From the NCBI GenBank assembly GCA_021731145.1, contig JAKFXX010000007.1, forward strand, positions 72,108-136,107: a DNA stretch of 64,000 nucleotides, read 5' to 3'. Position numbers and translations under genes: made by a program. Origin of the DNA: Gammaproteobacteria bacterium (GTDB taxonomy: Bacteria; Pseudomonadota; Gammaproteobacteria; Ga0077554; Ga007554). Below, piece after piece: positions 4,316-34,236 of this stretch. The first letter of the stretch is position 1. Each line of letters starts with the position of its first letter. The notes beneath the pieces are model-generated. The model was not told the origin of the DNA and searched no databases. It saw only the letters and a program-made list of their open reading frames with translations.

Positions 4316-4346
4316 TTTTCTACTCTATTTTTCGGGGTATCACCAC

Positions 4347-14711: not shown

Positions 14712-14949
14712 TTATCTTTGAATGTATGCGCTGTGCCCATGAAGGGGGCAATGTGCGCACCGGAGCAAGCAGCCTGGGCGACGTGGAACGGAATCCAGGC
14801 TGCGCACTTCATTTGATCAAACTGTCTGCTATTAACAATTCTGCAACATTTGGCGGGTAAAGTACCCCCTTCCTAAGCAAGCTCATCCCGTTGATGGGGT
14901 GGACGACAGCATATTCCTTCGATCAACCGGATTCACGAATAAAAACGTC

Positions 14950-16743: not shown

Positions 16744-16783
16744 TACATGAACACATAAATTGTGCAGCGTAATGCCGCACGAT

Positions 16784-16831
16784 TGTAGGTCGGCCTTCAG
16801 GCCGACATATCCGGCTAAAGCCAGACCTACA
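16784..16831. repeat. REP-type element (tgtaggtcggccttcaggccgaca family)
   Basis: tgtaggtc...gacctaca termini with an internal ggccttcaggcc hairpin, located between the exbB-like gene and exbD. Confidence 0.6.
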
Positions 16832-16892
16832 TGGGGTTCGGATCATGTTTCGTAATTTATAATTTCATGTGCTAGGACTGGAGGATAAAACG

Positions 16893-17297: not shown

Positions 17298-17336
17298 GAG
17301 CGCTATGCCAGGCTCGATTTTGTTGGGATGTAACGT

Positions 17337-18032
17337 GTGAGTGCCGACAAGCAGTTTCTGTTCCGCTGGGCGCCCAGGCTGATAGTGGTGGCGTTCCTCC
17401 TGCTGTTTCTTGTGGCGGCGGTCTATTTTCTGAGAGATATCATCTTTGCTGATGATAGCCACAAAAAAAATGTGATCCATGAGATCTCGCTGATAAAGCC
17501 GCCGCCGCCTCCCAAGCCAGAGGAAAAACCACCGGAGCCGGAGGTGAAAAAAGAAGAGGTAAAAATCCCCGAGCCGGAAACGCCGCCTCCTCCTGCTGAT
17601 CAGCCTGATAATGCCAAGCAAGACGAACCACCGCCCGCAAACGACTTGGGGCTGGATGCTGATGGTCAGGCGGGTTCTGATTCCTTTGGCTTGGGTGCCA
17701 ACAAAGGGGGAAGAAGCATCATCGGAGGGGGGGGCGGTAACGGCGGTGGTGGAAATCGCTACGGCTGGTATGCGGGAATGATTGAAAAGGGAATTCAGGA
17801 TGTTTTGGACAAGAATAAAGAGCTTGCCAAAGATAACTATAAGGTTGTCATAAAAGTCTGGGTCAACAAGGACGGGAGCGTCGAGCGCTTTGATCTTGGC
17901 GGTTCTTCCGGGAATCCAGAGACGGATAAGGCGATAAGGACGGCACTGAAAGAAATGACACGGGTGAAAGAACCGCCTCCAGACGGAATGCCGCAACCTG
18001 TAAAGCTGCGCATCACTTCGCGTTTGTTGTAA
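17337..18032 (+). CDS. tonB: TonB-family energy transducer
   Basis: GTG start. N-terminal TM LIVVAFLLLFLVAAVYFL. Pro/Glu/Lys-rich spacer KPPPPPKPEEKPPEPEVKKEEVKIPEPETPPPP. C-terminal TonB-like domain VIKVWVNKDGSVERFDL...PVKLRITSR. Confidence 0.8.
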   Translation: MSADKQFLFRWAPRLIVVAFLLLFLVAAVYFLRDIIFADDSHKKNVIHEISLIKPPPPPKPEEKPPEPEVKKEEVKIPEPETPPPPADQPDNAKQDEPPPANDLGLDADGQAGSDSFGLGANKGGRSIIGGGGGNGGGGNRYGWYAGMIEKGIQDVLDKNKELAKDNYKVVIKVWVNKDGSVERFDLGGSSGNPETDKAIRTALKEMTRVKEPPPDGMPQPVKLRITSRLL

Positions 18033-18037
18033 GTCGG

Positions 18038-18058
18038 CAGGTAATGCCGGATTACCTG
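18038..18058 (+). terminator. Small hairpin after tonB (weak terminator candidate)
   Basis: caggtaat / attacctg forms a perfect 8-bp stem with a 5-nt loop. No clean T-run follows. Confidence 0.3.
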
Positions 18059-18121
18059 ATGATTTTCATCCCTCTGGGGTGAGGATTGAGATGAAAAATT
18101 CACAGTGAGAAGAACCTGGAA

Positions 18122-19660: not shown

Positions 19661-19717
19661 CCTGTGTATTTTTTAGAGTCACGGAACACGGCCGGGACCA
19701 GACAGGAGGTGAATGTC

Positions 19718-20416
19718 ATGATCCGTCATAAAGGATGGCTTCTGCTTGTAATGTTCACTCTAGGGTTGGCCGGAAATGCCGCTGCGGATTCCGGTGACAA
19801 AAAAGAACGCGAGGCGCTAAGAAAAATGCGCCTCATGATACAGACGTTTGAACAGGAAAAATCGGCGCTGCAGCAGGAAAACAATAGCCTGAACGAGAAA
19901 GTGAAGGCACTGGGTAGCCAGGTCGGTGACATCAAAAGCGCTTCCACAGGCCAGATCAGGAAAAAAGATGCTCGTTTGGGCGAGGTTGAAAAGGAACTGG
20001 TTGCTGTCAAACAGGAAAATCAGTTTCTGGTAGCCAAGCTGCAAAGTACCCAGCAGAGTCTGGAAGAATTGACGCTGAAGCACAAGGAGGTTGTTCAGGC
20101 CGCGCAAAACAGTCTTCAGGACGGCGTCAAGCAAGGCGAGGAGTATAACAATAAGATAAAAGAGGCTGAAGTCAAAATTTCTCAGCAGTCTCAAGCTATT
20201 GACATGTGCGAGAAGAAGAATCTGGCGCTTTACAATCTCAATATGGAGATTCTGGAGAAATACAAGAGTAAGGGTGTTTGGGGATCATTTATTCAGGCTG
20301 AGCCCTTTACGCAAATAAAGCGCGTTGAAATTGAGAATACACTGCAAGAATATAAGGACAAGCTTGACAGCCAAAAAATGGAAAAATCTGGACCCGGCAC
20401 CGGCAAGGGAGGATAG
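19718..20416 (+). CDS. Secreted/periplasmic coiled-coil protein
   Basis: An aggagg RBS precedes ATG 19718. Signal peptide MIRHKGWLLLVMFTLGLAGNAAA. The remainder is heptad-like and rich in Glu/Lys/Gln/Leu. Confidence 0.7.
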   Translation: MIRHKGWLLLVMFTLGLAGNAAADSGDKKEREALRKMRLMIQTFEQEKSALQQENNSLNEKVKALGSQVGDIKSASTGQIRKKDARLGEVEKELVAVKQENQFLVAKLQSTQQSLEELTLKHKEVVQAAQNSLQDGVKQGEEYNNKIKEAEVKISQQSQAIDMCEKKNLALYNLNMEILEKYKSKGVWGSFIQAEPFTQIKRVEIENTLQEYKDKLDSQKMEKSGPGTGKGG

Positions 20417-20472
20417 GAAACGCTGGGGGTAAGTGGCATAATCCCTTGCCGCTACTCTAATAAAATGCATCC

Positions 20473-21162
20473 ATGAGTCCAATTTCACGCCCTGCCTTTA
20501 GCCGTATTTTCCCCTTTGCGATTTATATTGCCTTTTTGGCCATTGCCTCCGGCATGTCCACCTTGCAGGATATGGGCTATATCAAAGACTGGGATTTGCG
20601 CTGGCTCTATCCTGTCAAGGTGGGTTTGGTGTTGCTGGCGCTGCTAGGGTTATGGCGCCATTATTCTGAACTTTCCAGGCCAGCCAATGTAAAGGCGGGG
20701 GACTGGATCGTTGCCGGGATCACGGGTGTTGTGGTTTTTGTGATCTGGATTAACCTGGACCAGGCGTGGGCGACAATGGGCAGCGAGTCACGCGGCTTCA
20801 GTCCGGTATCAGAAGGGGGCGAAATTGACTGGATACTGGTGGCATTCCGTCTGATAGGCGCGGCTATGATAGTGCCTGTCATGGAGGAGTTGTTCTGGCG
20901 TTCGTTTGTGATGCGCTGGATAGATAACCCGGATTTTCTTCGCATCAATCCAGCTCAAATCAGCATTAAGTCGTTTGTTATAGCTTCGGTACTTTTTGGT
21001 ATCGAACACAATCTGTGGCTGGCGGGCATCATTGCCGGGATTGCCTATGGTTGGCTATACAAGCGCAGTGCCAATCTTTGGGTTCCTGTATTTTCACATG
21101 CCGTCACCAACGGCCTGCTTGGCATCTGGGTGATCTATTCCGGAAATTGGCAGTTCTGGTGA
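20473..21162 (+). CDS. CPBP (CAAX-type) intramembrane metalloprotease, resembling the PEP-CTERM-associated subfamily
   Basis: Multi-TM protein with the motifs EELFWRSF, FGIEH and HAVTN. Confidence 0.85.
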   Translation: MSPISRPAFSRIFPFAIYIAFLAIASGMSTLQDMGYIKDWDLRWLYPVKVGLVLLALLGLWRHYSELSRPANVKAGDWIVAGITGVVVFVIWINLDQAWATMGSESRGFSPVSEGGEIDWILVAFRLIGAAMIVPVMEELFWRSFVMRWIDNPDFLRINPAQISIKSFVIASVLFGIEHNLWLAGIIAGIAYGWLYKRSANLWVPVFSHAVTNGLLGIWVIYSGNWQFW

Positions 21163-21359
21163 AACATCCTTAGCAGTCCTTCCTCTCGGGAAAGCCGCGC
21201 CTTTTTACCCCCTCCTCCTTTGGCTGATAGCCCATAAATTATTCGGCCGCTGTACGTAATCAGATTGTCATATTGACGGACTATTATTGCCCCCAGGTTA
21301 CATAGCTTTTAACGCCAGCGCATCCTTAATAACCGGCACTGCATTCTACGGAGATTAAC

Positions 21360-22133
21360 TTGAGAAAAATATTGTGTCTCATGGCGTGCGCCATTCTTGC
21401 TGCGTGCTCGGTAAATCCGCCAGCACATACCGGCAATGAAGAAATTCTCAATAAACTTGGGGAAATGAGCAAGCAGATCACTACGCTGAGTGATGATGTC
21501 AGCGTGATCAAGAAAGCGTTGGCCGTTGCGATGGGCGGCGCACCTGAGCAGCCGAAACCACCCGTTATTACTACGATTGATCTCGATGACGCCTCCCCTG
21601 TGAGGGGTGATGAAAATGCCACGGTGGCAATTGTTGAGTTTTCAGATTACCAGTGCCCATTTTGCGGCCGCTTTCATGCGCAGGTTCTACCCAGCCTGAA
21701 GAAAGCATATATAGATGCCGGGAAAGTCCGGCATATTTTTCGTGATTTTCCGCTTGATTTTCACCCTCAAGCAAAGGATGCGAGCATTGCTGCGAACTGT
21801 GTTGGTGAGCAGAAGGCCTATTGGGAGATGCACGACAGTTTGTTTGCAAATCAAAATCGCCTTGGCGCCGCTTTATATGAAGAGCTTGCTAAAAAGATGA
21901 ATCTTGATATGGCCTCTTTTCAAGCATGCCTGAAGAATGCGAAGCAGGCGGAAAAAATTGAGAAAGACCTGTCTTATGGGCAAAGCCTTGGGATAGACGG
22001 AACCCCCAGCTTTTTCATTGGACGCATTGAAGGCAAGAAGCTTGTGGATGTTAAGCAGATAGTAGGCGCACAGCCCCCGGCAGTGTTTGCCCAGGCAATT
22101 GAGGCTGCCTTGGGGGGCGCGCCTAAAAATTGA
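21360..22133 (+). CDS. DsbA-family thiol:disulfide oxidoreductase lipoprotein
   Basis: Lipobox LAACS (TTG start 21360; alternative ATG 21381). Thioredoxin active site YQCPFCGRF. Confidence 0.85.
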   Translation: MRKILCLMACAILAACSVNPPAHTGNEEILNKLGEMSKQITTLSDDVSVIKKALAVAMGGAPEQPKPPVITTIDLDDASPVRGDENATVAIVEFSDYQCPFCGRFHAQVLPSLKKAYIDAGKVRHIFRDFPLDFHPQAKDASIAANCVGEQKAYWEMHDSLFANQNRLGAALYEELAKKMNLDMASFQACLKNAKQAEKIEKDLSYGQSLGIDGTPSFFIGRIEGKKLVDVKQIVGAQPPAVFAQAIEAALGGAPKN

Positions 22134-22185
22134 TGGCTGTTTTACTTACGAGATGAGTCCTCAGAGTAAGTGATATTTGATTTGT

Positions 22186-23382
22186 ATGCCCATTTACCAT
22201 TATAGCGCCTTGACAGAACGCGGCGTTTTGGCCGCAGGCGAGGGGGTTGCCACCTCGAGCGAAGCTTTACGCCAGGAATTGGTGGCGAAGGGTCTGCTGG
22301 TACAAGACATCCGTCAAAAAAACTCTGGATTGGGCTTGCGCCTAAAGCGCATCAAAGCGGAGGAATTTCTGCTGTTTAACCAGGAGTTTGTGGCACTCAT
22401 ACGCGCGGGTTTGACAATACCCGACGCCTTGAAAATAGCGGCGGATCGTCCTGATAGCCCGATGTTGGCCAGCCTCCTGCGGCACGTGAATGAAGAGGTG
22501 CATGGTGGTGCGTTACTTTCCGAAGCCTGCTCCAGGCACCCCGAGGTATTCGATGGTCTTTACGTCTCTGCGATAAAAACCGGCGAAAAGACCGGCGTGC
22601 TGGCGACGGTTCTGGAGAAATATCAAGCCTACCTCAAACGCCGGGTTGGTTTGCAGAAAACCATTTCACATGCGCTGACCTATCCGGTGTTTTTGTTGCT
22701 GGTGTTAGGCACGGTGCTGGGTGTGCTGTTTTTGTTTGTCATGCCGCGTTTTGTTGCGATGTATACCGATTTTGGCGCTGAACTGCCGCTACCCACACAA
22801 ATTCTCGTTACCTTGGTAAATAATTTGCCTTTTTATTTACCCGTGGTGTTATTGCTGGGCACGCTCGGATGGTTCGCCATCCAAGCCTGGGTAAAGACCG
22901 ATGCAGGGCGTCTGCGGGCAGATCATTTGAAGGGACGGCTGCCGATACTGGGGAAGGTCTATCAGGATATTGCCATCGTGCAACTGGTGCGGACGCTTGC
23001 CACCCTGCTCTCCGGTGGTACGCCCTTGGTCGAGGCCATGCGCATCACGCAGGATTCACTTACCAATCGCGCCAAGGCGCGTGCGTTGGCTCAGGCCGAA
23101 AACCTGGTGATGGGGGGGCAAAGCCTGGCGTCTGCCATGCGCAATACGCAACTCATGCCGGGAACGGCAATAAAGATGATTGAGGTGGGCGAGGCGTCGG
23201 GTGGGCTTGATGCCATGCTGGAGGAAATCGCCCAGTTCTATGAGGAAGTACTGACTAATAAACTTGCACGCATGACAGCATTGATTGAGCCTTTATTGAT
23301 GCTGATCATGGGCGTCATGATAGGCGGCACGATCATCGTGATGTATTTGCCGATCTTTCAGATTGCGGACATCGTCAAATGA
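22186..23382 (+). CDS. gspF: Type II secretion / type IV pilus platform protein (GspF/PilC family)
   Basis: About 400 aa with a duplicated T2SS-F architecture and three TM segments. Its stop overlaps the next start (ATGA). Confidence 0.9.
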   Translation: MPIYHYSALTERGVLAAGEGVATSSEALRQELVAKGLLVQDIRQKNSGLGLRLKRIKAEEFLLFNQEFVALIRAGLTIPDALKIAADRPDSPMLASLLRHVNEEVHGGALLSEACSRHPEVFDGLYVSAIKTGEKTGVLATVLEKYQAYLKRRVGLQKTISHALTYPVFLLLVLGTVLGVLFLFVMPRFVAMYTDFGAELPLPTQILVTLVNNLPFYLPVVLLLGTLGWFAIQAWVKTDAGRLRADHLKGRLPILGKVYQDIAIVQLVRTLATLLSGGTPLVEAMRITQDSLTNRAKARALAQAENLVMGGQSLASAMRNTQLMPGTAIKMIEVGEASGGLDAMLEEIAQFYEEVLTNKLARMTALIEPLLMLIMGVMIGGTIIVMYLPIFQIADIVK

Positions 23383-25097
23383 GCCATCCCTTCAGTTACC
23401 GGAGGTTAGGAGAAATCCTGCTGGGCAAGCAGTATGTCAGCCATCATCAGATAGATGCCGTCCTGACAGGCAAAAAGGGCCGGCTGGGCGAGGTGTTGCT
23501 TGATGAAGGCCGCATTACGCCAGCGCAGTTGGCCGAGGCTCTGGCAGAACAGTGCGGCTTACCCTATGTTGACCTGGAGGGATTTGTTATTTCGCCAGAG
23601 TTGTACAGCTTGATATCTGCAACGCACGCCTATCAGTATGGGGTTGTTCCCTACCAGAGAGACGGAGAAGTGTTGATCGTTGTTGTTTCTCCCCCCTGCG
23701 ATATTACTTTGGCCGACCGCCTGGAATGTTTGAGCGGTTTACAGGTGCGCCTATTTGCCAGCAGTCCACAAGCGATTGCAGCGGTGTTGAAGCGCAGCGA
23801 AGGGAATTCCGAGGTACTGAAAGGCGTCTCCGAGGATTTCAAGCTTGCCATCGTCAAGGAGAATGACGATGGCAAGGAGCAATACGTGTCATTGGATGCG
23901 GCCAATGAAGATGCCGCAAGCCCGGTTATAAAGCTCATTAACAGCATGCTGTCGGCGGCCATTCAAAAGCGTGTCAGTGACGTACATATAGAGACCTACG
24001 AAAAAGGCATCTCGGTCAATTACCGTATCGATGGTGTTTTATACCCCGCGACCGATACGCTCGACCGGCGCCATCAGAGCGCGTTGGTGTCGCGCCTCAA
24101 GGTGATGGCGGAGTTGGATATCGCCGAAAAAAGGGTACCCCAGGATGGACGATTCAAGTTGCGCTTTGGTTCGCGTGACATAGATTTCAGGGTATCCATC
24201 CTGCCCAGTGTGTTCGGTGAAGATGTGGTTATCCGGATTCTGGACAAATCATCCATCACCGATGGGATGAAGAATCTACGTCTGGAAAGCTTGGGAATGG
24301 CACCTGAAATCCTGAAAAAATTTCGCAAGAGTATCCATGAACCCTATGGCATGGTGCTGATTACCGGCCCCACGGGCAGTGGAAAAACGACCACGCTGTA
24401 TGCGGCGCTCAGCGAATTGAATACCGGTGATGAAAAGATCATTACCATCGAAGATCCGGTCGAATATCAATTGCACGGCATCGTGCAAATCGCGGTAAAC
24501 GAGAAAAAAAATCTTACCTTTGCCAAGGGGCTGCGTTCCATACTGCGGCATGATCCTGACAAGATCATGGTAGGTGAAATACGCGATGGAGAAACAGCGC
24601 AGATTGCCGTTCAATCGGCGCTGACGGGGCATCTGGTGTTCACAACGGTGCATGCTAATAGTGCTTTCGATGTGCTCGGGCGCTTCAGCCATATGGGAGT
24701 GGATACGTATAACTTTGTTTCGGCGCTCAATTGCGTCATGGCACAACGCCTGGTTCGAATCATTTGCCCGAAATGCAAGCGTCAAACCGCGGTTGATGAT
24801 GACATTCTGGAGCTGTCCGGGCTCGATCCTGCACAATATCAAGATCAAGCATGGTACGAAGGCGCCGGCTGTGATTACTGCCACGGCACGGGTTATCGCG
24901 GCCGTGCCGCCGTTACCGAGTTTCTCGCTTTGTCGCCATCCATCCGCCAGATGATCATAGAACGGCGTCCGATCAATGAGATGCAGGCGGCGGCGGTGCA
25001 GAATGGGATGGTCACATTACGTCAATCCGCACTGGCGCTGGTGCTTTCAGGCCAGGCGACGCTGAAAGAGATTAATCGTGTCACTTTCGTTGAATAA
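23379..25097 (+). CDS. gspE: Type II secretion / type IV pilus assembly ATPase (GspE/PilB family)
   Basis: N-terminal T2SS-E N-domain (LGEVLLDEGRITPAQLAEALAEQ). Walker A GPTGSGKTTT. Tetracysteine CPKC...CDYC. Confidence 0.95.
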   Translation: MSHPFSYRRLGEILLGKQYVSHHQIDAVLTGKKGRLGEVLLDEGRITPAQLAEALAEQCGLPYVDLEGFVISPELYSLISATHAYQYGVVPYQRDGEVLIVVVSPPCDITLADRLECLSGLQVRLFASSPQAIAAVLKRSEGNSEVLKGVSEDFKLAIVKENDDGKEQYVSLDAANEDAASPVIKLINSMLSAAIQKRVSDVHIETYEKGISVNYRIDGVLYPATDTLDRRHQSALVSRLKVMAELDIAEKRVPQDGRFKLRFGSRDIDFRVSILPSVFGEDVVIRILDKSSITDGMKNLRLESLGMAPEILKKFRKSIHEPYGMVLITGPTGSGKTTTLYAALSELNTGDEKIITIEDPVEYQLHGIVQIAVNEKKNLTFAKGLRSILRHDPDKIMVGEIRDGETAQIAVQSALTGHLVFTTVHANSAFDVLGRFSHMGVDTYNFVSALNCVMAQRLVRIICPKCKRQTAVDDDILELSGLDPAQYQDQAWYEGAGCDYCHGTGYRGRAAVTEFLALSPSIRQMIIERRPINEMQAAAVQNGMVTLRQSALALVLSGQATLKEINRVTFVE

Positions 25098-26034
25098 TCT
25101 GTTTGACAGTATTGCACCGCGCTCTAAAGCCGTTTTTGGAATCGGCATCGGCAGGGATCGTCTTTCTGCCGCGCATGTTGTTACTACAAAACAGGCGAGA
25201 CATATCGAACGGATCAGGCAGATAAATCTGCCTTTCACACTATTCAGTGGCACCCCTACGCCCGAGATAGGTCATGGGCTTTCATCCTTGTTGGGCGAGT
25301 TATGCGGTGAAGTCAAAAGGTCGCATATTCCCATTCAGATCGCATTGCCTGACCCGGTGGTGAGCTTGCGTGTCTTCGAGTTGGGTGCCATTCCTAAAAC
25401 CAGAAAAGAGCAACTGGCGCTTGTCCACTGGCGGTTCAACAAGGAGTTGAATTTGGGGGGGCGCGCCATTGAATGCAGTTGCCAGCCTTTGGGCGTGGAT
25501 AACGACAAACATCTCTTGTTGGCGATGGCTATCGATCAGGCTTGGTTGGATTGCCTGAAGGAGGCGTGCCGGGACGCGGGTGTGATCAGTACGGTCATCG
25601 ACATGGCGGCGTGTTATCGCTCTAACCGTTTTTACGAACGCTTCTCTTGCGATGGCGCCGATGTAGTTGTTATTTCATTGGATGACGACGCCTGGACAGT
25701 GTCCATTTCGGACGCGCAAGGCCGTTTACGCTTTGTCCGCTCGCGTTGGCGTGAAACCATGCCGGAGCGGGAGAGGGAATATCAGGAAATAGCCGCCGAG
25801 TCAGAAAAGATGGTGCGCCTCTATGCGCATGCCGCCCCTGGCCGGAGCATAAAAAACATACACGCAATAGGTGATGCCAAGGATGTCTCTGGGGTCGCGG
25901 ATTTATTGGATCAACGCATGGCGGGGAAATGTATCAGGGTGGCCGGAGGAGTCGAGTTTATATCTAAGCAAGGCGTGTCCGGAAATACTGTAGACAGTAT
26001 GGTGTCAACCCTGTCGGCAACGGTGTTGCGATGA
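25078..26034 (+). CDS. PilM/GspL-like cytoplasmic assembly protein (actin-like fold inferred)
   Basis: Position and size fit. N-terminus AVFGIGIGRDRLSAAHVV resembles the PilM phosphate-1 strand. GTG start overlaps the gspE end. Confidence 0.45.
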   Translation: MSLSLNNLFDSIAPRSKAVFGIGIGRDRLSAAHVVTTKQARHIERIRQINLPFTLFSGTPTPEIGHGLSSLLGELCGEVKRSHIPIQIALPDPVVSLRVFELGAIPKTRKEQLALVHWRFNKELNLGGRAIECSCQPLGVDNDKHLLLAMAIDQAWLDCLKEACRDAGVISTVIDMAACYRSNRFYERFSCDGADVVVISLDDDAWTVSISDAQGRLRFVRSRWRETMPEREREYQEIAAESEKMVRLYAHAAPGRSIKNIHAIGDAKDVSGVADLLDQRMAGKCIRVAGGVEFISKQGVSGNTVDSMVSTLSATVLR

Positions 26035-26573
26035 AAATCATAACGAATTTTTCGACGTCATCCGCTGGCATGGCGCCGCGGATCATGATGATATTGTGGG
26101 CAACGGCGTTGCTGGCCGCGCTGTTAGCCGCTGGGATGGCTATGCAAACATCCCAATTGAAACAGACGAAGCTGGACTTGGAGCGTCAATTGTCAAAACT
26201 CCAAAACAGGCACGTCGCTGGGATCCCGAAAGTATTTCCCCGTCATGAAGAGCTTGTCACGTTAAAGAAGCGCATAGACGCTGTTTCATCCATATCAAAT
26301 AGTGGGGAAGGGTCACTATCCGCGTTCCTGAGAAAAATAGAGCTGCTATTGCCTGACGAAGCCTATCTTGTGACACTTCACTACAAGGGAGATACCAGGG
26401 AGGCTCAGATTACGGCTGAGGCAGGCAGCGCAAAAATACTTACCGGTTTTTTGCGTGATCTTGAAAAAGAGAAAAGCTTCCTTGAAGTTTTGCTGACAAA
26501 ACAGTCGCAGCGCACATTGAACGATAAGCAGATTGTTCAGTTCGATCTGCGTATAAAGGAGCGTCTTTCATGA
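26031..26573 (+). CDS. PilN/GspL-C-like bitopic inner-membrane assembly protein
   Basis: Single TM IMMILWATALLAALLAAGMA followed by a coiled segment and a ferredoxin-like-sized periplasmic domain. 4-bp overlap with neighbours on both sides. Confidence 0.5.
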   Translation: MKIITNFSTSSAGMAPRIMMILWATALLAALLAAGMAMQTSQLKQTKLDLERQLSKLQNRHVAGIPKVFPRHEELVTLKKRIDAVSSISNSGEGSLSAFLRKIELLLPDEAYLVTLHYKGDTREAQITAEAGSAKILTGFLRDLEKEKSFLEVLLTKQSQRTLNDKQIVQFDLRIKERLS

Positions 26574-27139
26574 AGGCGACGCATCCTTTTGCGGAAAACA
26601 TATGGTATTCGCTACGCCATCCCCTGATCAAGGCGGGGATGGCGGCTAGCGGGGCCGCCATAACCCTGGCCATTGTAGTCTGTTTTGGATATTGGATGCC
26701 CGTGCGTAACGATATCAACAGCCTCTCTGAATCGGTTAATCTCGAACGTAAGCGGATTGTTGATGATACGCGTTCCGTGCAAATTTATAACGCATATTTG
26801 AGCGCTATAAAACAGCTTTCGGCCATTGATAAAAAAATTAACAGCCCTGCCGGTCATGCAGATCTTGTGAATAATATTGATAGTATCGCAATACAAAGAA
26901 AAGTAACGATTATTTCTGAATCCTACGATGAGGGTAAAGAAAGGAATGGTTACACGTCGCTGTATATGGAGTTGGCATTACAGGGAGACTATCAGGGGCT
27001 GAATGAATTTCTTGTTGATATTCGTGGCCTGCCAACCTGGACTGTTGTTGGGGAAGGGTCGATAAGCCGCTTGGCAGGACAGCAGGATTTGGTTAAGGCG
27101 CAATTGCGTTTAATAACTTATCACAAGACGGGAATATGA
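26570..27139 (+). CDS. PilO/GspM-like bitopic inner-membrane assembly protein
   Basis: Single TM AASGAAITLAIVVCFGYW, a coiled segment and a periplasmic domain. Translationally coupled to neighbours. Confidence 0.5.
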   Translation: MKATHPFAENIWYSLRHPLIKAGMAASGAAITLAIVVCFGYWMPVRNDINSLSESVNLERKRIVDDTRSVQIYNAYLSAIKQLSAIDKKINSPAGHADLVNNIDSIAIQRKVTIISESYDEGKERNGYTSLYMELALQGDYQGLNEFLVDIRGLPTWTVVGEGSISRLAGQQDLVKAQLRLITYHKTGI

Positions 27140-27768
27140 AAAGTTACAAGGAAGTAGCCATCAGACATCGCAATGCAATATTGCTGGTGATGGCTTTTGT
27201 CTTGATGGCCGCCAACGTATTGAATTGGGGCGCATGGGGTCAGGTCAATTCTCGGGAAGCGCCTGGAAGGGGATCAACGGCAGGGGGGTTCCAGGTTTCT
27301 GATTTTCAGATAAAAAATATGAATGTGCCTGAGGAGAAAGATAGCGCGATTGGCCGTGACTTGTTCTATCCTGTTTTTGAAGAATATTCAGAACCTGTTA
27401 AAGAAATAACATCCATTGCGGAGGATAATGAAAATATTAAACAAATAACTGATGCCGAGATACCTCCTCCCCTTCCGCAAAAAACTCCTGAACAACTTGA
27501 AGAGGAGATCGCACGGTCCGATGCCGCTAATTTTAAATATATTGGTACGATTTGGCGTGGAGGACAAGGCCAGGCGCTTTTGGTGAACACGGACAAGCGT
27601 TATTTCGTCTTTTCTGGAGACAAGGCAGGCAGCCGATTCGTTGTTGAAATGATAACGAACGACGCGGTCTCTCTAAGAGACCCTGTCACAAACGTGACGG
27701 CTCAAGTACTAATATCGGGAGGACCCGCATTAAAAGCGGCTCAAGAGACAAGTGACATTGAAAGATAG
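27136..27768 (+). CDS. PilP/GspC-HR-like protein
   Basis: N-terminal TM AILLVMAFVLMAANVL. C-terminal beta-sandwich-like FKYIGTIWRGGQGQALLVN...GDKAGSRFVVEMITNDAVSLRD. Lies immediately upstream of the secretin. Confidence 0.45.
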   Translation: MKSYKEVAIRHRNAILLVMAFVLMAANVLNWGAWGQVNSREAPGRGSTAGGFQVSDFQIKNMNVPEEKDSAIGRDLFYPVFEEYSEPVKEITSIAEDNENIKQITDAEIPPPLPQKTPEQLEEEIARSDAANFKYIGTIWRGGQGQALLVNTDKRYFVFSGDKAGSRFVVEMITNDAVSLRDPVTNVTAQVLISGGPALKAAQETSDIER

Positions 27769-27774
27769 CGTAAA

Positions 27775-30057
27775 ATGAAACCGATAAAAAAAATAATATG
27801 TTATTTCATGGTGGTAGTGTTGTGCCTGTTGGTTGCATCTTGTGCCGGTCCGATTCGAAAGGCGGAAAACTATGAGGATAAACAGGAATGGATAAATGCG
27901 GTAATTGAGTACCGAAAGGCCTATAACGATGAGCCAAGGAACGTGGAATATAAGTCACGTCTGAAGCATGCCGAATTCAAGGCGGCCGACTATTATTACC
28001 ATCAAGGTATGCTACTTTTGGAGCGGGAAAAAATCGATGAAGCCATAGTTCAACTCCAGCAGGGCTTGACTGCAATGCCCGGTGATGAGCGGCTAATGCA
28101 GGCGATGAACAAAGCGCTTTCAAAAAGAGAGGCCAACAATCTTTATCAAGAAGGAGTTCTGATAGAAGGCGCGGGCAATGCCGACGAAGCGAAGCGCATA
28201 TTCCAAAGGGCCGTAAATGTCTATCCTGATCACAAAGCGGCATCAGAGGCCCTTGCCAATCTTGAAAATAAAAAAATCAAGGAGCGTGATACCGAGAAAT
28301 TCTCGTTGACTTCAGCATCCCCCATTTCGCTGAATTTCCGTCAAGCCGATATGCGCTCAGTTTTTGAGTTCGTTGCCAAATCATTTGGCATAAATATCAT
28401 ATTTGATGAGGCCATCAAGACCATATCCCCCGTCACGGTATTTGCCAAGGATGTTTCCTTCGAGCAAGCTTTGGCCCTGATTAATGTGGCAACCAAAACC
28501 TTCTATAAGAAAATCAGCAAAAATACCATCATAATTGTGCCGGATTCAAAGGACAAGCGTGGTCAATATGAAGATCATATGATGCGTACCTTTTATTTGA
28601 GCACTGTCCGGGCCAAGGAGGCGGCGGATATCCTGAGAGGTGTGATGACAATAAGGAAAATGATCGTCAACGAACCGTTAAATACGCTGGTTGTCCGTGA
28701 TACCGAGGAAGTTATCAGGCAGGTGGAAAAGATTATTGATGTAAACGACAGAAAGCCCGCTGAAATAGTTCTGGAAGTTGAGATCCTGGAGATGAATCGC
28801 ACCAAGGCAGAGCGTCTTGGCCTTGATCTTGGGTCGTATCAAATCAGCGCTGCGGTTCCGTCAGCCATCGCCCTGAGTGGATCCATTAGCGGCGCGATTG
28901 AGAAGGCTTCGCTACTTACGCTTCCTTCGGCGACCTTCAGGTTTTTTAAGCAGGATGTAGATGCCAGGACGCTTGCCAATCCCAAGGTAAGGGTTGTGAA
29001 CGGAAAATCCGCAAAAATCCATATTGGCGACCGTGTGCCGTTACGTGTTTCCACGATCATCAATACGACGGGGCAGGTGAACACAACTTATGATTACAAA
29101 GACATTGGTATAAAGCTTAGCGTTGAACCAACCATAAATCTGGACAATTCATCATCAGTAAAGCTTGGTTTGGAAGTGAGCTCCCTGGGGGCTAATCTGG
29201 GAACGGCGACAGAGCCGGCATTCCTTATCGGTAGCCGAAATGCTGAAACTTTTATGCTGTTGCGTGATGGTGAAACAGCGATTCTGGGCGGTCTTATTCG
29301 TGATGAGGATCGCAAGACGGTAGTAAGGGTTCCATTACTGGGAGACATTCCTGCCGCAGGTTCTCTATTTAGTTCTTACGATATGTCGAAGGGGCGCACC
29401 GACGTGTTGTTGACCATCACGCCTCGTGTTGTGCGAGGCTGGGATCTGCCCGCCAAGGAAGTCCGCCAGTTTTATTCTGGCACCGAAGATAAATATCTTG
29501 ATCAAGCGCCCTTTCAGAGCCTCGCTTCTCCATCATCGGCTGCGGTAAAGGAGGATGCCGGGATTCAGGAGTCCCCGCAGGCACCTGTTAACGAAAGTCC
29601 GGCGGCACCCCCATTGCCAGGCCAGTCGATTGCGCCAGGTATTGGGGGGAATGTTATCCAGTCTCCCGCGCTCGGCTTTTCTAAGCCAGCTTATATGGTC
29701 ATCAATCAAGATGAGGTGGATGTTCAGATTCTTTTTGACAACCTCGCAAAAAACAGGGAGATCGCCACGGAAATACAATTCAATTCAAAGGTGCTGGAAT
29801 TTGTCGGGGGTGATGCGGGCGAATTCAAAGTTGGTTTTTTTCAGGCCGACAAAAATGAGGCAGGAGATGCTGTACGTCTAAGCGCCGGGCTTGCAAATGA
29901 TGCCGTCTCGAAAGAGAAAGGTATTCTGGCAACCCTCCGGTTCCGTGCCTTGAAGCCAGGTGTTTCTGCTCTCACGTATGGTGCCTCATCGGTCAAAAAT
30001 GCGGCGGGTGACATCATTAATCCACAGTCAAATATCTCACGTGTCATTGTACGCTAG
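27775..30057 (+). CDS. gspD: Secretin (GspD/PilQ family) lipoprotein with N-terminal TPR module and C-terminal cohesin-like domain
   Basis: Lipobox LLVASCAG. TPR-like repeats (YRKAYNDEPRN..., AKRIFQRAVNVYPDHKAA). N-domain ISLNFRQADMRSVFEFVAKSFGINIIFDE. Secretin core RVPLLGDIPAAGSLFS. Pro-rich linker. C-terminus EIQFNSKVLEFVGGDAGEF...GILATLRFRALKPGVSAL. Confidence 0.9.
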   Translation: MKPIKKIICYFMVVVLCLLVASCAGPIRKAENYEDKQEWINAVIEYRKAYNDEPRNVEYKSRLKHAEFKAADYYYHQGMLLLEREKIDEAIVQLQQGLTAMPGDERLMQAMNKALSKREANNLYQEGVLIEGAGNADEAKRIFQRAVNVYPDHKAASEALANLENKKIKERDTEKFSLTSASPISLNFRQADMRSVFEFVAKSFGINIIFDEAIKTISPVTVFAKDVSFEQALALINVATKTFYKKISKNTIIIVPDSKDKRGQYEDHMMRTFYLSTVRAKEAADILRGVMTIRKMIVNEPLNTLVVRDTEEVIRQVEKIIDVNDRKPAEIVLEVEILEMNRTKAERLGLDLGSYQISAAVPSAIALSGSISGAIEKASLLTLPSATFRFFKQDVDARTLANPKVRVVNGKSAKIHIGDRVPLRVSTIINTTGQVNTTYDYKDIGIKLSVEPTINLDNSSSVKLGLEVSSLGANLGTATEPAFLIGSRNAETFMLLRDGETAILGGLIRDEDRKTVVRVPLLGDIPAAGSLFSSYDMSKGRTDVLLTITPRVVRGWDLPAKEVRQFYSGTEDKYLDQAPFQSLASPSSAAVKEDAGIQESPQAPVNESPAAPPLPGQSIAPGIGGNVIQSPALGFSKPAYMVINQDEVDVQILFDNLAKNREIATEIQFNSKVLEFVGGDAGEFKVGFFQADKNEAGDAVRLSAGLANDAVSKEKGILATLRFRALKPGVSALTYGASSVKNAAGDIINPQSNISRVIVR

Positions 30058-30538
30058 GAAATACAAACTCCTGGGAGTCACCTTCGTCGAGTTGCTGGTG
30101 ACGCTGGTGATTCTTTCGATTCTCGCGGCGGTTGCATTGCCTTATGCAGAAATTACGGTGCGCCGCAATAAGGAGATTGAATTGCGCCAGGCACTGCGTG
30201 ATATGCGCAGTGCCATTGACCGTTTTCATCTGGACTGGGAAACGGCAAAAATATCGAAATTGGATAATGATGTTAGCGAAAATGGTTACCCAAAAAAATT
30301 GCAAGTATTGGTTGAAGGAGTGGGGTCTGCCCAGGCCAAAGGGACAAAGATTAAATACTTGCGCCGAATTCCTGCCGACCCGTTCTCCGGCCCTGACAAG
30401 CCGTCACTGGAGCACTGGGTGCTGCGCGGTTATCAGGATGCGTCCGATGCCACCTCGTGGGGAGGAACGGATGTTTACGATGTACGGTCATTAAGCCGTC
30501 GCAAGGCGATTGACGGCAGCTTCTACAAGGATTGGTGA
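30041..30538 (+). CDS. GspG-like pseudopilin 1
   Basis: Prepilin motif KLLG/VTFVELLVTLVILSILAAVALP with Glu at +5. GTG at 30041 gives a 12-aa leader; the ATG at 29960 would give an implausible 39-aa leader inside the secretin gene. GspG-like YPKKL...RRIPADPFSG. Confidence 0.7.
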   Translation: MSLYARKYKLLGVTFVELLVTLVILSILAAVALPYAEITVRRNKEIELRQALRDMRSAIDRFHLDWETAKISKLDNDVSENGYPKKLQVLVEGVGSAQAKGTKIKYLRRIPADPFSGPDKPSLEHWVLRGYQDASDATSWGGTDVYDVRSLSRRKAIDGSFYKDW

Positions 30539-30539
30539 C

Positions 30540-30917
30540 ATGCGCCGCAGTATTGTCCACAAGGCGCGCGGCTTTACCTTGGTGGAGCTGATGGTGGTGC
30601 TGGTTTTGATTGTTATACTTGCCAGTCTCGCAGCACCCTTGGTAACCAGCTCAATACAGCGCGGCCGTGAAGCTGTGCTCAAGGAAGATTTATTAGTGAT
30701 GCGTAAAGCAATTGATGATTACTATGCGGATACGGGAAATTATCCGGAGGATATCAAGCAACTGATGGAAAAACGTTATCTGAGGAAAATTCCTGTTGAT
30801 CCTTTAACTGAACGCAGTGATACGTGGCGTGAGGTTCGTGATGATGCGGGGATTGTTGATATAAAAAGTGGAGCGGATGGAAAATCCGCCAATGATGAGT
30901 CATACAGCGAATGGTAG
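30540..30917 (+). CDS. GspG-like pseudopilin 2
   Basis: Leader MRRSIVHKARG/FTLVELMVVLVLIVILASLAAP with Glu at +5. AIDDYYADTGNYPEDIKQL...RKIPVDPLT. Confidence 0.85.
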   Translation: MRRSIVHKARGFTLVELMVVLVLIVILASLAAPLVTSSIQRGREAVLKEDLLVMRKAIDDYYADTGNYPEDIKQLMEKRYLRKIPVDPLTERSDTWREVRDDAGIVDIKSGADGKSANDESYSEW

Positions 30918-30957
30918 TTTATTGTCTTAATCTTAATTTGATGTGAGAGGCTGGTCT

Positions 30958-31392
30958 ATGAAAAAGAGCATGAGATGGTCTTCGGGTTTTACCATGATGG
31001 AGTTGCTGATTGTTCTGGTTATTATCGGATTGTTAGCGGCTTTGGTGGGTCCTGCATTGTTCCAGCGCATCAATCCGGCAAAACAATCGGCGGCGCGCAG
31101 TCAGATTGAAAATTTCATGACAGCTCTCGACACCTATTTTGTAGATAACGGACACTTTCCAACGACACAACAGGGTTTTTTGGCGCTTCGTGTTAAACCG
31201 GAAGGTGATGAAAAGTGGGCGGGGCCTTATCTTAAAAAAGACGTGCCAAACGATCCATGGGGAAATCCATACCAATACCGCGCTCCTGGACACAATGGTG
31301 GCTACGATATTTTATCTCTGGGCGCGGATGGTAAAGAGGGTGGCGAAAATGAAAATATGGATATCAATAGCTGGGAGATCGACAAGAAATAA
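30958..31392 (+). CDS. gspG: Type II secretion major pseudopilin GspG
   Basis: A gagagg RBS precedes the start. MKKSMRWSSG/FTMMELLIVLVIIGLLAALVGP. Canonical GspG body ARSQIENFMTALDTYFVDNGHFPT...GPYLKK..PNDPWGNPYQYRAPGHNGGYDILSLGADGKEGG. Confidence 0.95.
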   Translation: MKKSMRWSSGFTMMELLIVLVIIGLLAALVGPALFQRINPAKQSAARSQIENFMTALDTYFVDNGHFPTTQQGFLALRVKPEGDEKWAGPYLKKDVPNDPWGNPYQYRAPGHNGGYDILSLGADGKEGGENENMDINSWEIDKK

Positions 31393-31897
31393 TCATGATG
31401 GATTTACCTATATCATGGTGCTGGTCGCGGTTGTAATAACCGGCCTGATGGCAGGTGTTGCAGCCACCATCGCATCGCGGGTTATGCAGGCCGAGAGAGA
31501 GAAGGAATTGCTTTTCCGTGGCATGGCTTATCAGAATGCGATAAAAAGCTATTATCAGGCTGGCGCGCAACTTAATACGTTTATCTTTCCGCGCTCGTTA
31601 AACGATTTGCTGAATGACCCGCGCTTTCCCGGCAAACATCATATTCGTGCTCTGTATGTGGACCCAATGGGGAAAGGACGGCGGGAGTGGCGCGTGATCC
31701 GTTCAATTGATGGCGGTATCGCCGGCGTTGTCAGCTCAAGCAAACAAAAATCTTTAAAGACCGCCAACTTCCCCGCTGGACTGGAATCTCTGGCGGGCAA
31801 GAAGTCCTATGCGGAATGGGTTTTTCAGTACAACGCTCCCGCAGCAATCCAAACTCCACGTTCCGTCATGCCACGTGTACCTGTGCAGCAGAAATAG
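31349..31897 (+). CDS. Atypical pseudopilin lacking Glu5
   Basis: Candidate leader MKIWISIAGRSTRNNHDG/FTYIMVLVAVVITGLMAGVAA has Met, not Glu, at +5. GspG-like AIKSYYQAG...LNDPRFPG. The start is uncertain and overlaps the gspG end. Confidence 0.6.
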   Translation: MKIWISIAGRSTRNNHDGFTYIMVLVAVVITGLMAGVAATIASRVMQAEREKELLFRGMAYQNAIKSYYQAGAQLNTFIFPRSLNDLLNDPRFPGKHHIRALYVDPMGKGRREWRVIRSIDGGIAGVVSSSKQKSLKTANFPAGLESLAGKKSYAEWVFQYNAPAAIQTPRSVMPRVPVQQK

Positions 31898-31899
31898 AT

Positions 31900-34236
31900 T
31901 CAAGATTCCGCCGCCTCTCCCGCCTCTCCCGCCTCTCCCGCCTCTCCCGCCTCATACGGTTCGGCATAGCCACATTCCTTTTGCGGACAGACCTTTTCCG
32001 TGCCACGACGCTTGGTGGTTTTGATGGTCATCACCGGCCATTGGCATTTTGGGCAAGGCTCGCTGAGGGGCTCATTCCACACCGCGTAGTTGCAATCCGG
32101 ATAGGTTGCACAGGAGTAGAAGATCTTGCCGTAGCGTGACTTGCGCTTGAGCAGGGTGCCCTTGTGACACTGCGGGCAGTCCACGCCGGTGTCGGCGGGC
32201 TTCTCCAGGGGTTCTATGTGTTTGCAGGCAGGGTAATTGCTGCAACCGATGAACTTGCCGTAGCGGCCCTGGCGGAAGATAAGCGGAGATTCACACTTGG
32301 GGCAGGTGCGGCCTTCCACGACTTCGGGCTCTGTCGCAGCGCCCGCTTCCTCATTGAGGTTGCGGGTGTAATCGCACTCCGGGTAGGTGGTGCAGCCGAT
32401 GAACCGTCCGCGTTTTCCGAGGCGGATCGAGAGCGGTTTGCCGCATTTGGGGCAGGCTTCGTCCAACGCCTCCTGGGTGACATCCTGGCGCTTAACGTTC
32501 TCTTCGGTAGTGTCGACCTGAGTCTTGAAGGGCGTCCAGAAATCGCGCAGGAGCGGAACCCAGTCTTTTTCACCGCGCGACACCGCATCGAGCTCGTCTT
32601 CGAGATGGGCGGTGAAGTCGTAATCCACATAACGCGTGAAATATTCGGTGAGGAACTTGTTGACAATGCGTCCCACGTCGGTGGGTTTGAAGCGCCGCTT
32701 GTCCAGCTCTACATACTCACGCTGCTGGAGCGTGGAGATGATGCTCGCATAGGTGGAGGGGCGGCCGATGCCGTGTTCTTCGAGCGCCTTGATCAGGCTG
32801 GCTTCGCCATAACGCGGGGGTGGCTCGGTGAAATGCTGTTCGGGCTGGATGCCAAGGAGGTCAATTTTTTCCCCTGCCAGCAGCACGGGCAGGCGGCGTT
32901 CATCCTCGCCTTCTTTACCTTCTTCTTTGCTGTCGTCCACGCTTTCCTGGTACACCGCCATGAAGCCGGGGTGGACTATGGTGGAGCCGTTGGCGCGGAA
33001 CAGATTGCCTTCGCCGGCGCTCATGTCGACGCTCACGGTGTCGAGGGTGGCGTGGATCATCTGGCAGGCGATGGTGCGCTTCCAGATCAGGTCATACAGC
33101 TTGTACTGGTCAGCGGTCAGACTGTCCTTGATAGACTCCGGTGCGCGTTCCGCAGCAGTGGGGCGTATCGCCTCGTGGGCCTCCTGGGCATTTTTGGATT
33201 TTGTTTTGTAAACATGCGGTTGCTCGGGCACGTTGTCGCTGCCGAAACGGGTGGCAATGAGGCTACGGATATCGTCCAGCGCCTCGTTTGCCAGGCTCAC
33301 CGAGTCGGTACGCATATAGCTGATCAAACCCACTGCGCCACCGCCGATGTCGATACCCTCATAGAGCTGCTGGGCGAGGCGCATGGTGCGCTGAGCGGTA
33401 AAGCCCAGTTTGCGCGATGCCTCCTGTTGCAGTGTCGAGGTGGTAAACGGCGGTGAAGGATTGCGTTTACGCTGCTTCTTGTCCACCTTGGCGACCACCA
33501 GGGCGCCCGCTGCGGCGCGCAGCAATTCCTCCTCGATTTTGGCGGCCTGCTCGCCATCGGTGACGCTGAACTGGCTGACTTTTTCACCTTGATACTGGAT
33601 GAGTTTGGCGCTGAAGCGGTCGCCTTTTTTGGCGAGGTTGGAGAGTATCGTCCAGTATTCGCGCGTTACGAATTTTTCGATCTCTTCCTCGCGCTCGACG
33701 ATCATGCGCAGCGCCGGGCTTTGCACGCGCCCGGCGGAGAGGCCACGGCGGATTTTTTTCCACAGCAGCGGGGAGAGGTTGAAGCCCACCAGGTAATCCA
33801 GCGCGCGGCGCGCCTGCTGGGCGTTGACCAGCTCCATGGATACCTCGCGCGGATTCGCCACGGCCTCGTTCACGGCGCGTTTGGTGATCTCGTAGAACAC
33901 CACGCGATGCACGGGCTTGTCCTTGAGGAGCTTCTTTTCCTTGAGTATTTCCAGGAGATGCCAGGAGATGGCCTCGCCTTCACGGTCCGGATCGGTTGCC
34001 AGATAGAGCACATCGGCCTTTTTCATGGCGCTGACGATGGCGTCGACGTGCTTTTCATTCCTTTCAATAGTCTGGTACTTCATGGCGAAGCTGTGCTCTG
34101 TATCGACAGCGCCCTCTTTGGGCAGCAGGTCACGCACATGGCCGTAGGAGGCGAGGATGTCGAAGTCCTTGCCCAGGTATTTTTTCAAGGTCTTGGCCTT
34201 GGCGGGCGATTCAACGATAAGGAGATTTTTGGTCAC
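31900..34236 (-). CDS. topA: DNA topoisomerase I
   Basis: Toprim start LLIVESPAKAKTLKKYLG. Active-site region ISYMRTDS. Four C-terminal CxxC zinc-ribbon repeats. Size 778 aa. Confidence 0.97.
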   Translation of the reverse strand: MTKNLLIVESPAKAKTLKKYLGKDFDILASYGHVRDLLPKEGAVDTEHSFAMKYQTIERNEKHVDAIVSAMKKADVLYLATDPDREGEAISWHLLEILKEKKLLKDKPVHRVVFYEITKRAVNEAVANPREVSMELVNAQQARRALDYLVGFNLSPLLWKKIRRGLSAGRVQSPALRMIVEREEEIEKFVTREYWTILSNLAKKGDRFSAKLIQYQGEKVSQFSVTDGEQAAKIEEELLRAAAGALVVAKVDKKQRKRNPSPPFTTSTLQQEASRKLGFTAQRTMRLAQQLYEGIDIGGGAVGLISYMRTDSVSLANEALDDIRSLIATRFGSDNVPEQPHVYKTKSKNAQEAHEAIRPTAAERAPESIKDSLTADQYKLYDLIWKRTIACQMIHATLDTVSVDMSAGEGNLFRANGSTIVHPGFMAVYQESVDDSKEEGKEGEDERRLPVLLAGEKIDLLGIQPEQHFTEPPPRYGEASLIKALEEHGIGRPSTYASIISTLQQREYVELDKRRFKPTDVGRIVNKFLTEYFTRYVDYDFTAHLEDELDAVSRGEKDWVPLLRDFWTPFKTQVDTTEENVKRQDVTQEALDEACPKCGKPLSIRLGKRGRFIGCTTYPECDYTRNLNEEAGAATEPEVVEGRTCPKCESPLIFRQGRYGKFIGCSNYPACKHIEPLEKPADTGVDCPQCHKGTLLKRKSRYGKIFYSCATYPDCNYAVWNEPLSEPCPKCQWPVMTIKTTKRRGTEKVCPQKECGYAEPYEAGEAGEAGEAGEAAES
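31909..31953. repeat. 9-bp tandem repeat (cgcctctcc, about 4.5 copies) inside the 3' end of topA
   Basis: Read directly from the sequence. On the minus strand it encodes the C-terminal EAGEAGEAGEAGEA tail of TopA. Confidence 0.9.

Follow-up and report, generated by a model that had tools for sequence, protein, structure and literature searches.

Two questions about secretins are open, namely by which route they enter the outer membrane and how the cargo of type II secretion systems (T2SSs) is recognised. In type IV pilus (T4P) systems the secretin is served by separate lipoproteins made of tetratricopeptide repeats (TPRs), PilF, PilW and Tgl, which are outer-membrane proteins with six TPRs and proposed binders of the unfolded beta-lip (PMC10653833). 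TadD, a lipoprotein with five TPRs, binds the C-terminus of RcpA (PMC10499894), and both PilF/PilW/Tgl and TadD promote the multimerisation and insertion of their secretins (PMC10653833, PMC10499894). The pilotin-binding S-domains, and pilotins with them, are found at the secretin C-terminus (PMC10499894, PMC10653833). Here we describe a secretin encoded at positions 27775 to 30057 of a 64,000-nucleotide stretch of gammaproteobacterial DNA (contig JAKFXX010000007.1 of assembly GCA_021731145.1), which we call the window. Its novelty is that a predicted lipid anchor, a TPR module and a cohesin are merged in one secretin chain; the domain matches themselves are visible to routine annotation. In the open-access literature we found no description of a cohesin on a secretin or of a TPR-secretin fusion, which is not proof of their absence.

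HxcQ, of the Hxc T2SS of Pseudomonas aeruginosa, has a simple linker after its cysteine and the usual GspD N-domains, and is not known to possess a TPR domain or a cohesin. It is made as a lipoprotein, as is predicted for the window secretin, and in the work cited in PMC12475490 its anchor targets it without a separate pilotin. With PilF/PilW/Tgl and TadD the window secretin shares the membrane-proximal combination of a lipobox and TPRs, but those are separate proteins of five to six TPRs, whereas here about 3-4 repeats are fused in cis. The barrel, the N0 domain and an N1-type domain are common to GspD, PilQ and the window secretin, and so are the GspE/F/G and PilMNO(P) partners. However, GspD has three ring domains after N0 and an S-domain, where the window secretin has one ring domain and a segment of about 30 residues. 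The window secretin is also far from the curated models of both families, with 163.2 bits for GspD (TIGR02517, cutoff 351.35) and 150.7 bits for PilQ (TIGR02515, cutoff 284.35), it has no match to AMIN, a domain found N-terminally in many PilQ proteins, and it stays below the curated cutoffs for MshL, HofQ and SctC. Its tail has the same nine-strand jelly roll as known cohesins such as 2xdh and the Clostridium perfringens NagJ cohesin 2jh2 (template modelling (TM) score about 0.8), but the identity to them is only 12-20%, and it forms the C-terminal end of a secretin from a didermic bacterium.

An atypical T2SS of Geobacter sulfurreducens was reportedly described by Mehta et al. in 2006. No Geobacter protein is found among the matches of two homology searches with the window secretin. 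Passages of PMC6013743 and PMC7894505 on G. sulfurreducens name PulQ and PulE as proteins of a secretion system and call OxpG a pseudopilin of a T2SS. The original prediction had drawn a comparison with this system, whose secretin is said to be a lipoprotein as well. In Omnitrophota, T2SS-like loci containing gspD/E/F have been found directly upstream of giant extracellular proteins (bioRxiv 10.1101/2023.11.21.568195). At least 14 relatives of the operon described here are likewise followed by giant genes, but the phylum and the gene set differ.

The identification of the gene as the secretin of a T2SS-like operon, with a lipoprotein signal, TPRs and a cohesin fold, is very likely correct. It is the seventh of 11 tightly packed and often overlapping genes, and the same gene order is found in about 35 of 46 related loci (L001 to L046), which were taken from one-genome-per-species GTDB contigs in a scan that used two peptide patterns only and is not exhaustive. 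The order is also found in four further loci (L047, L048, L049 and L050), three of which (L047, L049 and L050) came from an exact protein look-up. On balance, and with somewhat better than even confidence, we favour the reading that the protein is the outer-membrane secretin of a conserved, non-canonical T2SS-like machine, which pilots itself and carries a binding module tethered in the periplasm.

Domain architecture and its conservation

The secretin is encoded by a single, uninterrupted open reading frame (ORF) of 760 residues on the + strand. The original prediction, made by reading the DNA letters and their translation, had listed a lipobox, about 170 residues of TPR-like repeats, N-domains, a secretin core, a linker and a tail of roughly 130 residues, and all of these are present essentially where it had placed them. 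The sizes needed some correction, as the helical repeats span about 150 and not 170 residues, while the tail, at about 128 residues, is close to the expected length. One element beyond that list is the conserved segment of about 30 residues after the barrel.

The protein starts with a signal peptide and lipobox (residues 1-23, 27775..27843, +), in which a basic n-region (MKPIKK) and a hydrophobic core are followed by L-V-A-S-C23-A-G-P. The LVAS-C23 site fits the lipobox consensus [LVI][ASTVI][GAS]C, and the residue at position +2 is an alanine, which is no inner-membrane retention signal, as expected for the signal of a liposecretin. The cysteine is kept across homologues: Cys23 is invariant in an alignment of 65 sequences and is found in nearly all of the best 120 homologues, the exceptions being N-terminally truncated or having a slightly different lipobox. 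About three residues past Cys23 begins a TPR-like helical repeat domain (residues 26-174, 27850..28296, +), for which Pfam, AlphaFold2 (AF2) and a profile search against the PDB agree. AF2 models it as seven helices, or about 3-4 repeats, with a predicted local distance difference test score (pLDDT) of about 88-96, and it includes two TPR motifs recognised by Pfam at residues 71-103 and 123-163. Several TPR models match residues 71-163 in a Pfam scan of the whole protein, and when residues 1-180 are scanned alone TPR_2 reaches 34.4 bits (cutoff 27), TPR_6 28.2 bits (cutoff 26.3) and TPR_14 28.0 bits (cutoff 23.5).

The pore-forming part begins with an N0 domain (residues 184-256, 28324..28542, +), which is supported by Pfam, by the AF2 secondary structure and by a match to the PilQ fragment in PDB 4ar0 (E-value 3e-4). 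The Pfam matches here are of the N0/STN/FecR_C type and cover residues 186-254 (FecR_C 25.5 bits, GspD N0 21.5 bits). A single ring domain of the N1/N3 type follows (Secretin_N, residues 270-341, 28582..28797, +); PF03958 matches residues 270-329 in the whole-protein scan (E-value 3.3e-9, 37.3 bits, cutoff 28.2), and the full-length AF2 model, which was built on the 65-sequence alignment, places the N1-type domain at residues 280-341. The beta-barrel core (residues 385-554, 28927..29436, +) contains VPLLGDIPAAGSLFS and is matched by Pfam Secretin PF00263 over residues 392-554 with an E-value of 8.6e-37 (126.8 bits, cutoff 27.5). Its matches among PDB secretins include PilQ and GspD structures with E-values of 1e-27 to 1e-18 and also InvG, and in the full-length model the barrel takes up residues 385-553. 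A barrel domain above the gathering score, an N0 domain and one Secretin_N domain place the protein in the secretin superfamily.

The segment directly after the barrel (residues 555-582, 29437..29520, +) was recognised from the family alignment and from alignments with GspD and 8jvb. Six of its residues (W556, F566, S568, G569, Y574 and F580) are invariant among the 65 sequences. Several GspD alignments extend to residues 572-577 and that of the secretin chain 8jvb to residue 596, and the segment is possibly a short S-domain-like remnant. AF2 has low confidence in it in the monomer model, where residues 555-628 are disordered. The longest alignment of barrel and post-barrel segment among solved structures is with PDB 8jvb / 9wfd (query residues 371-596, E-value 1e-23), a T2SS secretin of 502 residues from Acidithiobacillus caldus, for which we found no describing paper in the open-access literature.

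A disordered linker rich in Pro, Ala and Ser, as judged from its composition and a pLDDT below 50, connects this segment to the tail (residues 583-628, 29521..29658, +). In homologues it is 40-105 residues long and Pro/Ala-rich throughout. The C-terminal cohesin-fold domain (residues 632-760, 29668..30057 with the stop codon, +) was identified with Pfam, AF2 and Foldseek. Scanned by itself, the tail is matched by Pfam Cohesin PF00963 with 26.1-26.3 bits (cutoff 24.1); a scan of the whole 760-residue protein gives no such match. Modelled alone, the tail reaches a pLDDT of 92 and a predicted TM score (pTM) of 0.86, and in the full-length model residues 632-759 form an all-beta domain. AF2 and Foldseek both point to the nine-strand beta jelly roll of cohesins: the top 50 PDB matches listed by Foldseek are all cohesins (TM score 0.66-0.83, E-values down to 5e-9), and the best among those listed is 2xdh, a non-cellulosomal cohesin of Archaeoglobus fulgidus.

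A homology search with the secretin gave 1215 matches, of which the best 120 are proteins of about 740-810 residues with 50-93% identity. The tail is kept in 119 of these 120, where it ends exactly at the C-terminus, and the remaining one is truncated. When homologous tails were scanned alone, Pfam Cohesin was matched by 23 of 31, with a best E-value of 9e-8. The mean pairwise identity differs strongly between the domains and is 0.80 for the barrel, 0.77 for N0, 0.70 for N1, 0.59 for the TPR domain, 0.53 for the cohesin and 0.25 for the linker. In the TPR domain W39, E45, R47, E58, E67, D72, Y74, Y75 and Q95 are invariant across the 65 sequences, and the many polar residues among them suggest a conserved binding surface. 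When 1.84 billion representative proteins were searched with a profile of the tail, 477 relatives were found. They are of two kinds, single C-terminal copies in secretins with a lipobox and TPRs, and scaffoldin-like proteins with several cohesins. We inspected six of the scaffoldin-like proteins, and three of them have dockerin-like repeats at their end. The presence of such proteins among its relatives places the tail in the true cohesin family. The combination of lipobox, TPR domain, secretin and cohesin is a conserved architecture, found in hundreds of sequences from several phyla, and not an accidental fusion.

In the clade of the window the cohesin (29668-30054) has, for example, NSKVLEFV in place of the family's NPQLLxFV and GVSALTYG in place of its GISYLVYR. 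The database labels of the family are generic, for example 'general secretion pathway protein D', 'secretin N-terminal domain-containing protein' or 'tetratricopeptide repeat protein'.

Proposed piloting in cis and competing explanations

Lipoproteins without an inner-membrane retention signal are carried to the outer membrane by Lol. A self-piloting secretin would be exported by Sec, lipidated at Cys23 and delivered by Lol in monomeric form to the outer membrane's inner leaflet, as shown for HxcQ, a liposecretin which pilots itself through its lipid anchor according to work cited in PMC12475490. The membrane-proximal TPR domain would then act in cis as PilF/PilW/Tgl and TadD do in trans. While the secretin multimerises and inserts, this domain would hold or order a part of it, and it would probably stay there, forming an outer collar at the periplasmic face. 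With piloting in cis by the TPR domain, the lack of a pilotin gene in the operon and of a full S-domain in the secretin would be explained. N0 domains are bound by PilP and by the HR domain of GspC, and the N0 domain of this secretin may dock the PilP/GspC-like protein of the inner-membrane platform. The cohesin would leave the barrel on the periplasmic side, on a tether of 40-105 residues and in 12-15 copies per pore, and might there capture a putative partner, either cargo or a component of the machine.

The TPR module had originally been taken for the equivalent of PilF/PilW in cis. The fusion is real and conserved, but a specific kinship with PilF/PilW was not seen. In the profile search against the PDB a designed consensus TPR (1.6e-11), OGT and CpoB/YbgF came ahead of PilF (5e-4 to 1e-3), whose structures rank behind dozens of unrelated TPR proteins. 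The NCBIfam PilW model (TIGR02521) gives 13.6 bits against a cutoff of 154, and the Tgl and GltE models are also far below their cutoffs. We therefore rejected a specific homology to PilF/PilW/Tgl; as the TPR similarity is generic, the module is equivalent by analogy and not by homology. A secretin that pilots itself in cis is plausible by comparison with HxcQ and with the TPR lipoprotein pilotins, and the idea is reasonable since the fusion is conserved and none of the 11 genes of the operon is of the pilotin type. No separate gene for a pilotin or a TPR lipoprotein was found within the operon, either in the window or in the related loci that share it.

In solved secretin structures the chain exits the barrel on the periplasmic side, the one on which S-domains and pilotins bind. 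The tail, for which exposure at the surface or in the periplasm had been suggested, is therefore most likely periplasmic, and a surface location is unlikely on topological grounds.

Several points weigh against a self-piloting secretin with a tethered periplasmic module. The periplasmic placement of the tail, most likely as it is, is taken over from other secretins. A dockerin-like partner was found neither in the window nor in loci L001-L047, nor in the Pfam records of complete giant neighbours. The full-length AF2 model has a pTM of 0.31, and inter-domain contacts are therefore unreadable. The cohesin of the window's clade is divergent, with 31% identity to the rest compared to a family mean of 53%. 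Finally, as judged from its sequence, the TPR domain has no specific kinship to known pilotins and is shorter than they are, with about 3-4 repeats.

The cohesin might instead be a structural part of the pore, which replaces the S-domain and the pilotin ring and staples the multimer by packing on the barrel or on the TPR domain of a neighbouring subunit. We regard this as possible but rather unlikely. It would fit the observation that TPR, cohesin and lipobox always co-occur among the secretins of the family, and also the lack of an external partner in the window and in loci L001-L047 and of a full S-domain in the secretin. There is a precedent in the TPR grooves of pilotins, which bind C-terminal segments of secretins, as for TadD and RcpA (PMC10499894). 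But a hypervariable, disordered tether of 40-105 residues would be unusual for a domain packed at a fixed place, the cohesin evolves faster than the TPR domain and the core, and AF2 predicts no confident inter-domain packing, as the pTM of 0.31 indicates.

Another possibility, which we consider a little less likely still, concerns the TPR domain. It could be an adaptor for cargo, for peptidoglycan or for the inner-membrane platform, with the lipid anchor alone responsible for targeting, similar to HxcQ, which is said to need only its lipid anchor in the work cited in PMC12475490. The generic sequence of the domain, its best bacterial matches to periplasmic TPR proteins of the CpoB/YbgF type, and its being shorter than the pilotins of T4P and Tad systems are consistent with such a role. 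However, the domain starts about three residues past the predicted acylated cysteine and would hence be located at the outer membrane's inner leaflet, where pilotins act, and the operon offers no other pilotin candidate.

Partner search and giant neighbouring genes

In the favoured reading of a tethered binding module, the cohesin would bind a partner. Using regular expression scans of all six frames, the paired calcium-loop motif of dockerins was absent from the window and from loci L001-L047. Only single, unpaired calcium-loop motifs were found, in a TpsA gene of the window (nucleotide 9831) and in one giant gene of L023. The operon proteins and the giant neighbours have no Dockerin match in Pfam, and none is on record for the complete giants of L049 and L050, which are 3769 and 3582 residues long. 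A cognate dockerin was thus found neither in the window and loci L001-L047 nor in the neighbouring giants.

The TpsA gene belongs to a two-partner pair upstream of the operon (2576-14711), in which TpsB (POTRA_2/ShlB) is encoded at 2576-4186 and TpsA is a protein of 3454 residues with ESPR, TPS and DUF3739 domains. Its isolated calcium-loop motif, GDVNHDGVIDGQD, resembles those of dockerins or TSP3 repeats. We did not retain this giant protein as a possible cargo of the secretin system, since it comes with a TpsB partner of its own.

Among the relatives of the operon, at least 14 of about 30 loci with enough downstream DNA (L012, L015, L021, L023, L027, L028, L029, L031, L035, L036, L040, L047, L049 and L050) have a large to giant ORF immediately behind the fourth pseudopilin gene. 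These ORFs range from 1341 residues (L015, complete) to more than 3700 residues and have a signal peptide wherever the N-terminus was inspected. In one family F5/8-type-C, SpvB, FG-GAP and TcdB_midN domains are combined, which makes it similar to the B/C components of Tc toxins. Among the others are giants with RHS repeats, DUF6531, a transglutaminase core and TEN_YD-shell domains, giants with teneurin-like TTR/NHL/FN-plug domains and giants with CARDB repeats. The association with giant genes crosses phyla and includes Candidatus Goldiibacteriota (L049). In the window there is no giant gene downstream of the operon, and the clade with the divergent cohesin is without one. A module common to all downstream giants, which the cohesin could recognise, is not visible by BLAST, since BLAST shows several unrelated giant families.

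Through gene adjacency, the giant proteins are candidate cargo. This raises the question whether the liposecretin with TPRs and a cohesin marks an undescribed T2SS subtype, present in several phyla, which exports or holds giant YD-shell proteins of 2.4 to more than 3.7 thousand residues, with the 12-15 periplasmic cohesins as cargo receptor or holdfast. We give this suggestion a low probability; if it were true, a T2SS would have a genetically defined cargo and a defined recognition module. The YD-shell giants in view are Rhs, Tc-toxin B/C-like and teneurin-like proteins, whose genes directly follow the operon in about half of the loci.

The least convincing explanation, and in our opinion an improbable one, is that the cohesin is a cell-surface docking site at the pore mouth for a cellulosome-like display of dockerin-bearing or other secreted proteins: the tail fold is that of a genuine cohesin, its closest relatives outside secretins are scaffoldin-like, three of them with dockerin-like repeats at the end, in many loci the operon has genes for giant secreted proteins behind it, and in Omnitrophota dockerin-type giant proteins are preceded by T2SS-like loci (bioRxiv 10.1101/2023.11.21.568195), but solved secretins have their C-terminus and S-domain on the periplasmic side, so that the channel lumen would be the sole exit for 12-15 tails, there is no paired dockerin-like motif in the window or loci L001-L047, and the complete giants of L049 and L050 have no Dockerin match on record in Pfam.

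The secretin family of the window builds the helpers of other secretins, a predicted lipid anchor and TPRs, into the pore subunit and adds a docking module on a flexible tether. If the self-piloting reading and the roles proposed with it are true, the family would provide a natural single-chain secretin-pilotin system. Loci with a single giant Rhs, Tc or teneurin-like gene would then contain one obvious candidate cargo and one candidate receptor domain, a combination well suited to the study of how cargo is recognised. The family is a worthwhile target because its architecture is conserved, it is spread among uncultured lithotrophs and it is linked to giant YD-shell proteins. Sulfur- and iron-oxidising Proteobacteria are known mostly through metagenomes, and with this family their envelope biology gains a further machine, so far uncharacterised.

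The operon and its surroundings

All genes of the operon are on the + strand. The first encodes a platform protein of the GspF/PilC type (22177..23382), with a Pfam T2SSF match (2.7e-53) and an NCBIfam GspF match that stays below its cutoff (8e-88). It is followed by an ATPase of the GspE/PilB type (23379..25097; Pfam T2SSE 3e-130, MshEN 8e-16). The N-terminus of this ATPase has a MshE-type motif that binds cyclic di-GMP (NF053729, 43 bits, cutoff 38), which suggests, going by the motif, that cyclic di-GMP may control the secretion machine. The records for the ATPases of L047-L050 list MshEN as well. The third gene encodes a protein of 318 residues (25078..26034), which has no Pfam or NCBIfam match and which we assign to the PilM position by its conserved place and its homology across loci. 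The next genes encode a PilN-like protein (26031..26573; Pfam PilN 5.7e-8), a PilO-like protein (26570..27139; Pfam PilO 2.5e-4) and a PilP/GspC-HR-like protein with an N-terminal transmembrane helix (27136..27768). The last of these matches the PilP structures 2ivw and 4av2 at an E-value of about 0.006 in a profile search, and five of nine homologues match Pfam T2SSC.

Four genes of pseudopilin type follow the secretin gene. Pseudopilin 1 (29999..30538, LLG|VTFVE, start codon uncertain) has the Pfam N_methyl motif and a weak similarity to GspG, and it is kept in the operon across loci with 52-94% identity. Pseudopilin 2 (30540..30917, G|FTLVE) has an N_methyl match (5.5e-8) and is GspG-like below the cutoff (1e-15). 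The major pseudopilin GspG (30958..31392) is well supported by Pfam T2SSG (5.9e-39) and TIGR01710 (165 bits, cutoff 88.85). The fourth pseudopilin-like protein (31349..31897, DG|FTYIM, start uncertain) has no Glu5 and clusters with pseudopilins across loci; in L047-L050 this position is held by a gene of about 160 residues.

By Pfam and NCBIfam the operon has the T2SS core of GspG, GspE, GspF and a secretin. In the positions of the GspC/L/M platform there are PilM/N/O-type proteins and the PilP/GspC-HR-like protein. The minor pseudopilins GspH/I/J/K were not found in the operon, as the three pseudopilins other than GspG are GspG-like or unassigned. The operon is a T2SS-like machine of the type IV filament class with a PilMNOP-style platform, and is neither a canonical Gsp system nor a type IVa pilus.

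The taxonomic distribution of the operon covers Gamma- and Betaproteobacteria, Candidatus Goldiibacteriota (L049) and FCPU426. The hosts include Acidiferrobacterales, Sulfurifustaceae, Gallionellaceae, Thiobacillus, Thiohalophilus, Thioalkalispiraceae, Ca. Thiodiazotropha and FCPU426. All genome records for the secretin are metagenome-assembled genomes or bins, and there is no cultured isolate among L001-L046.

Positions 16000-32000 of the window, from exbD/tonB to the last pseudopilin gene, have a G+C content of 46-53%, compared to 55-64% in most of the flanks, and this block was possibly acquired horizontally. The genes directly upstream of the operon (14899-22133) encode an ExbB/MotA protein fused to DUF2341 and LamG (614 residues), ExbD, TonB and a Porin_5 porin, as well as an unassigned ORF of 250 residues, a CPBP (Rce1-like) protease and a thioredoxin similar to DsbA. 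As a set they are shared with the closest relatives only. Matches to ExbD, TonB, the porin and the 250-residue ORF are confined to L001 and/or L002, and those to CPBP to L002. DsbA is found again in L001, L002 and L013, and in L022 on the opposite strand downstream of the operon, while no match to ExbB was recovered in any related locus. On the other side, the operon of the window is followed by topA on the minus strand (31900-34236). The 3' end of this topoisomerase I gene (31900-31960, minus strand) contains a short tandem repeat, GEAGEAGEAGEA, which on the opposite strand reads PPLPPLPPLPPLPP in a spurious ORF.

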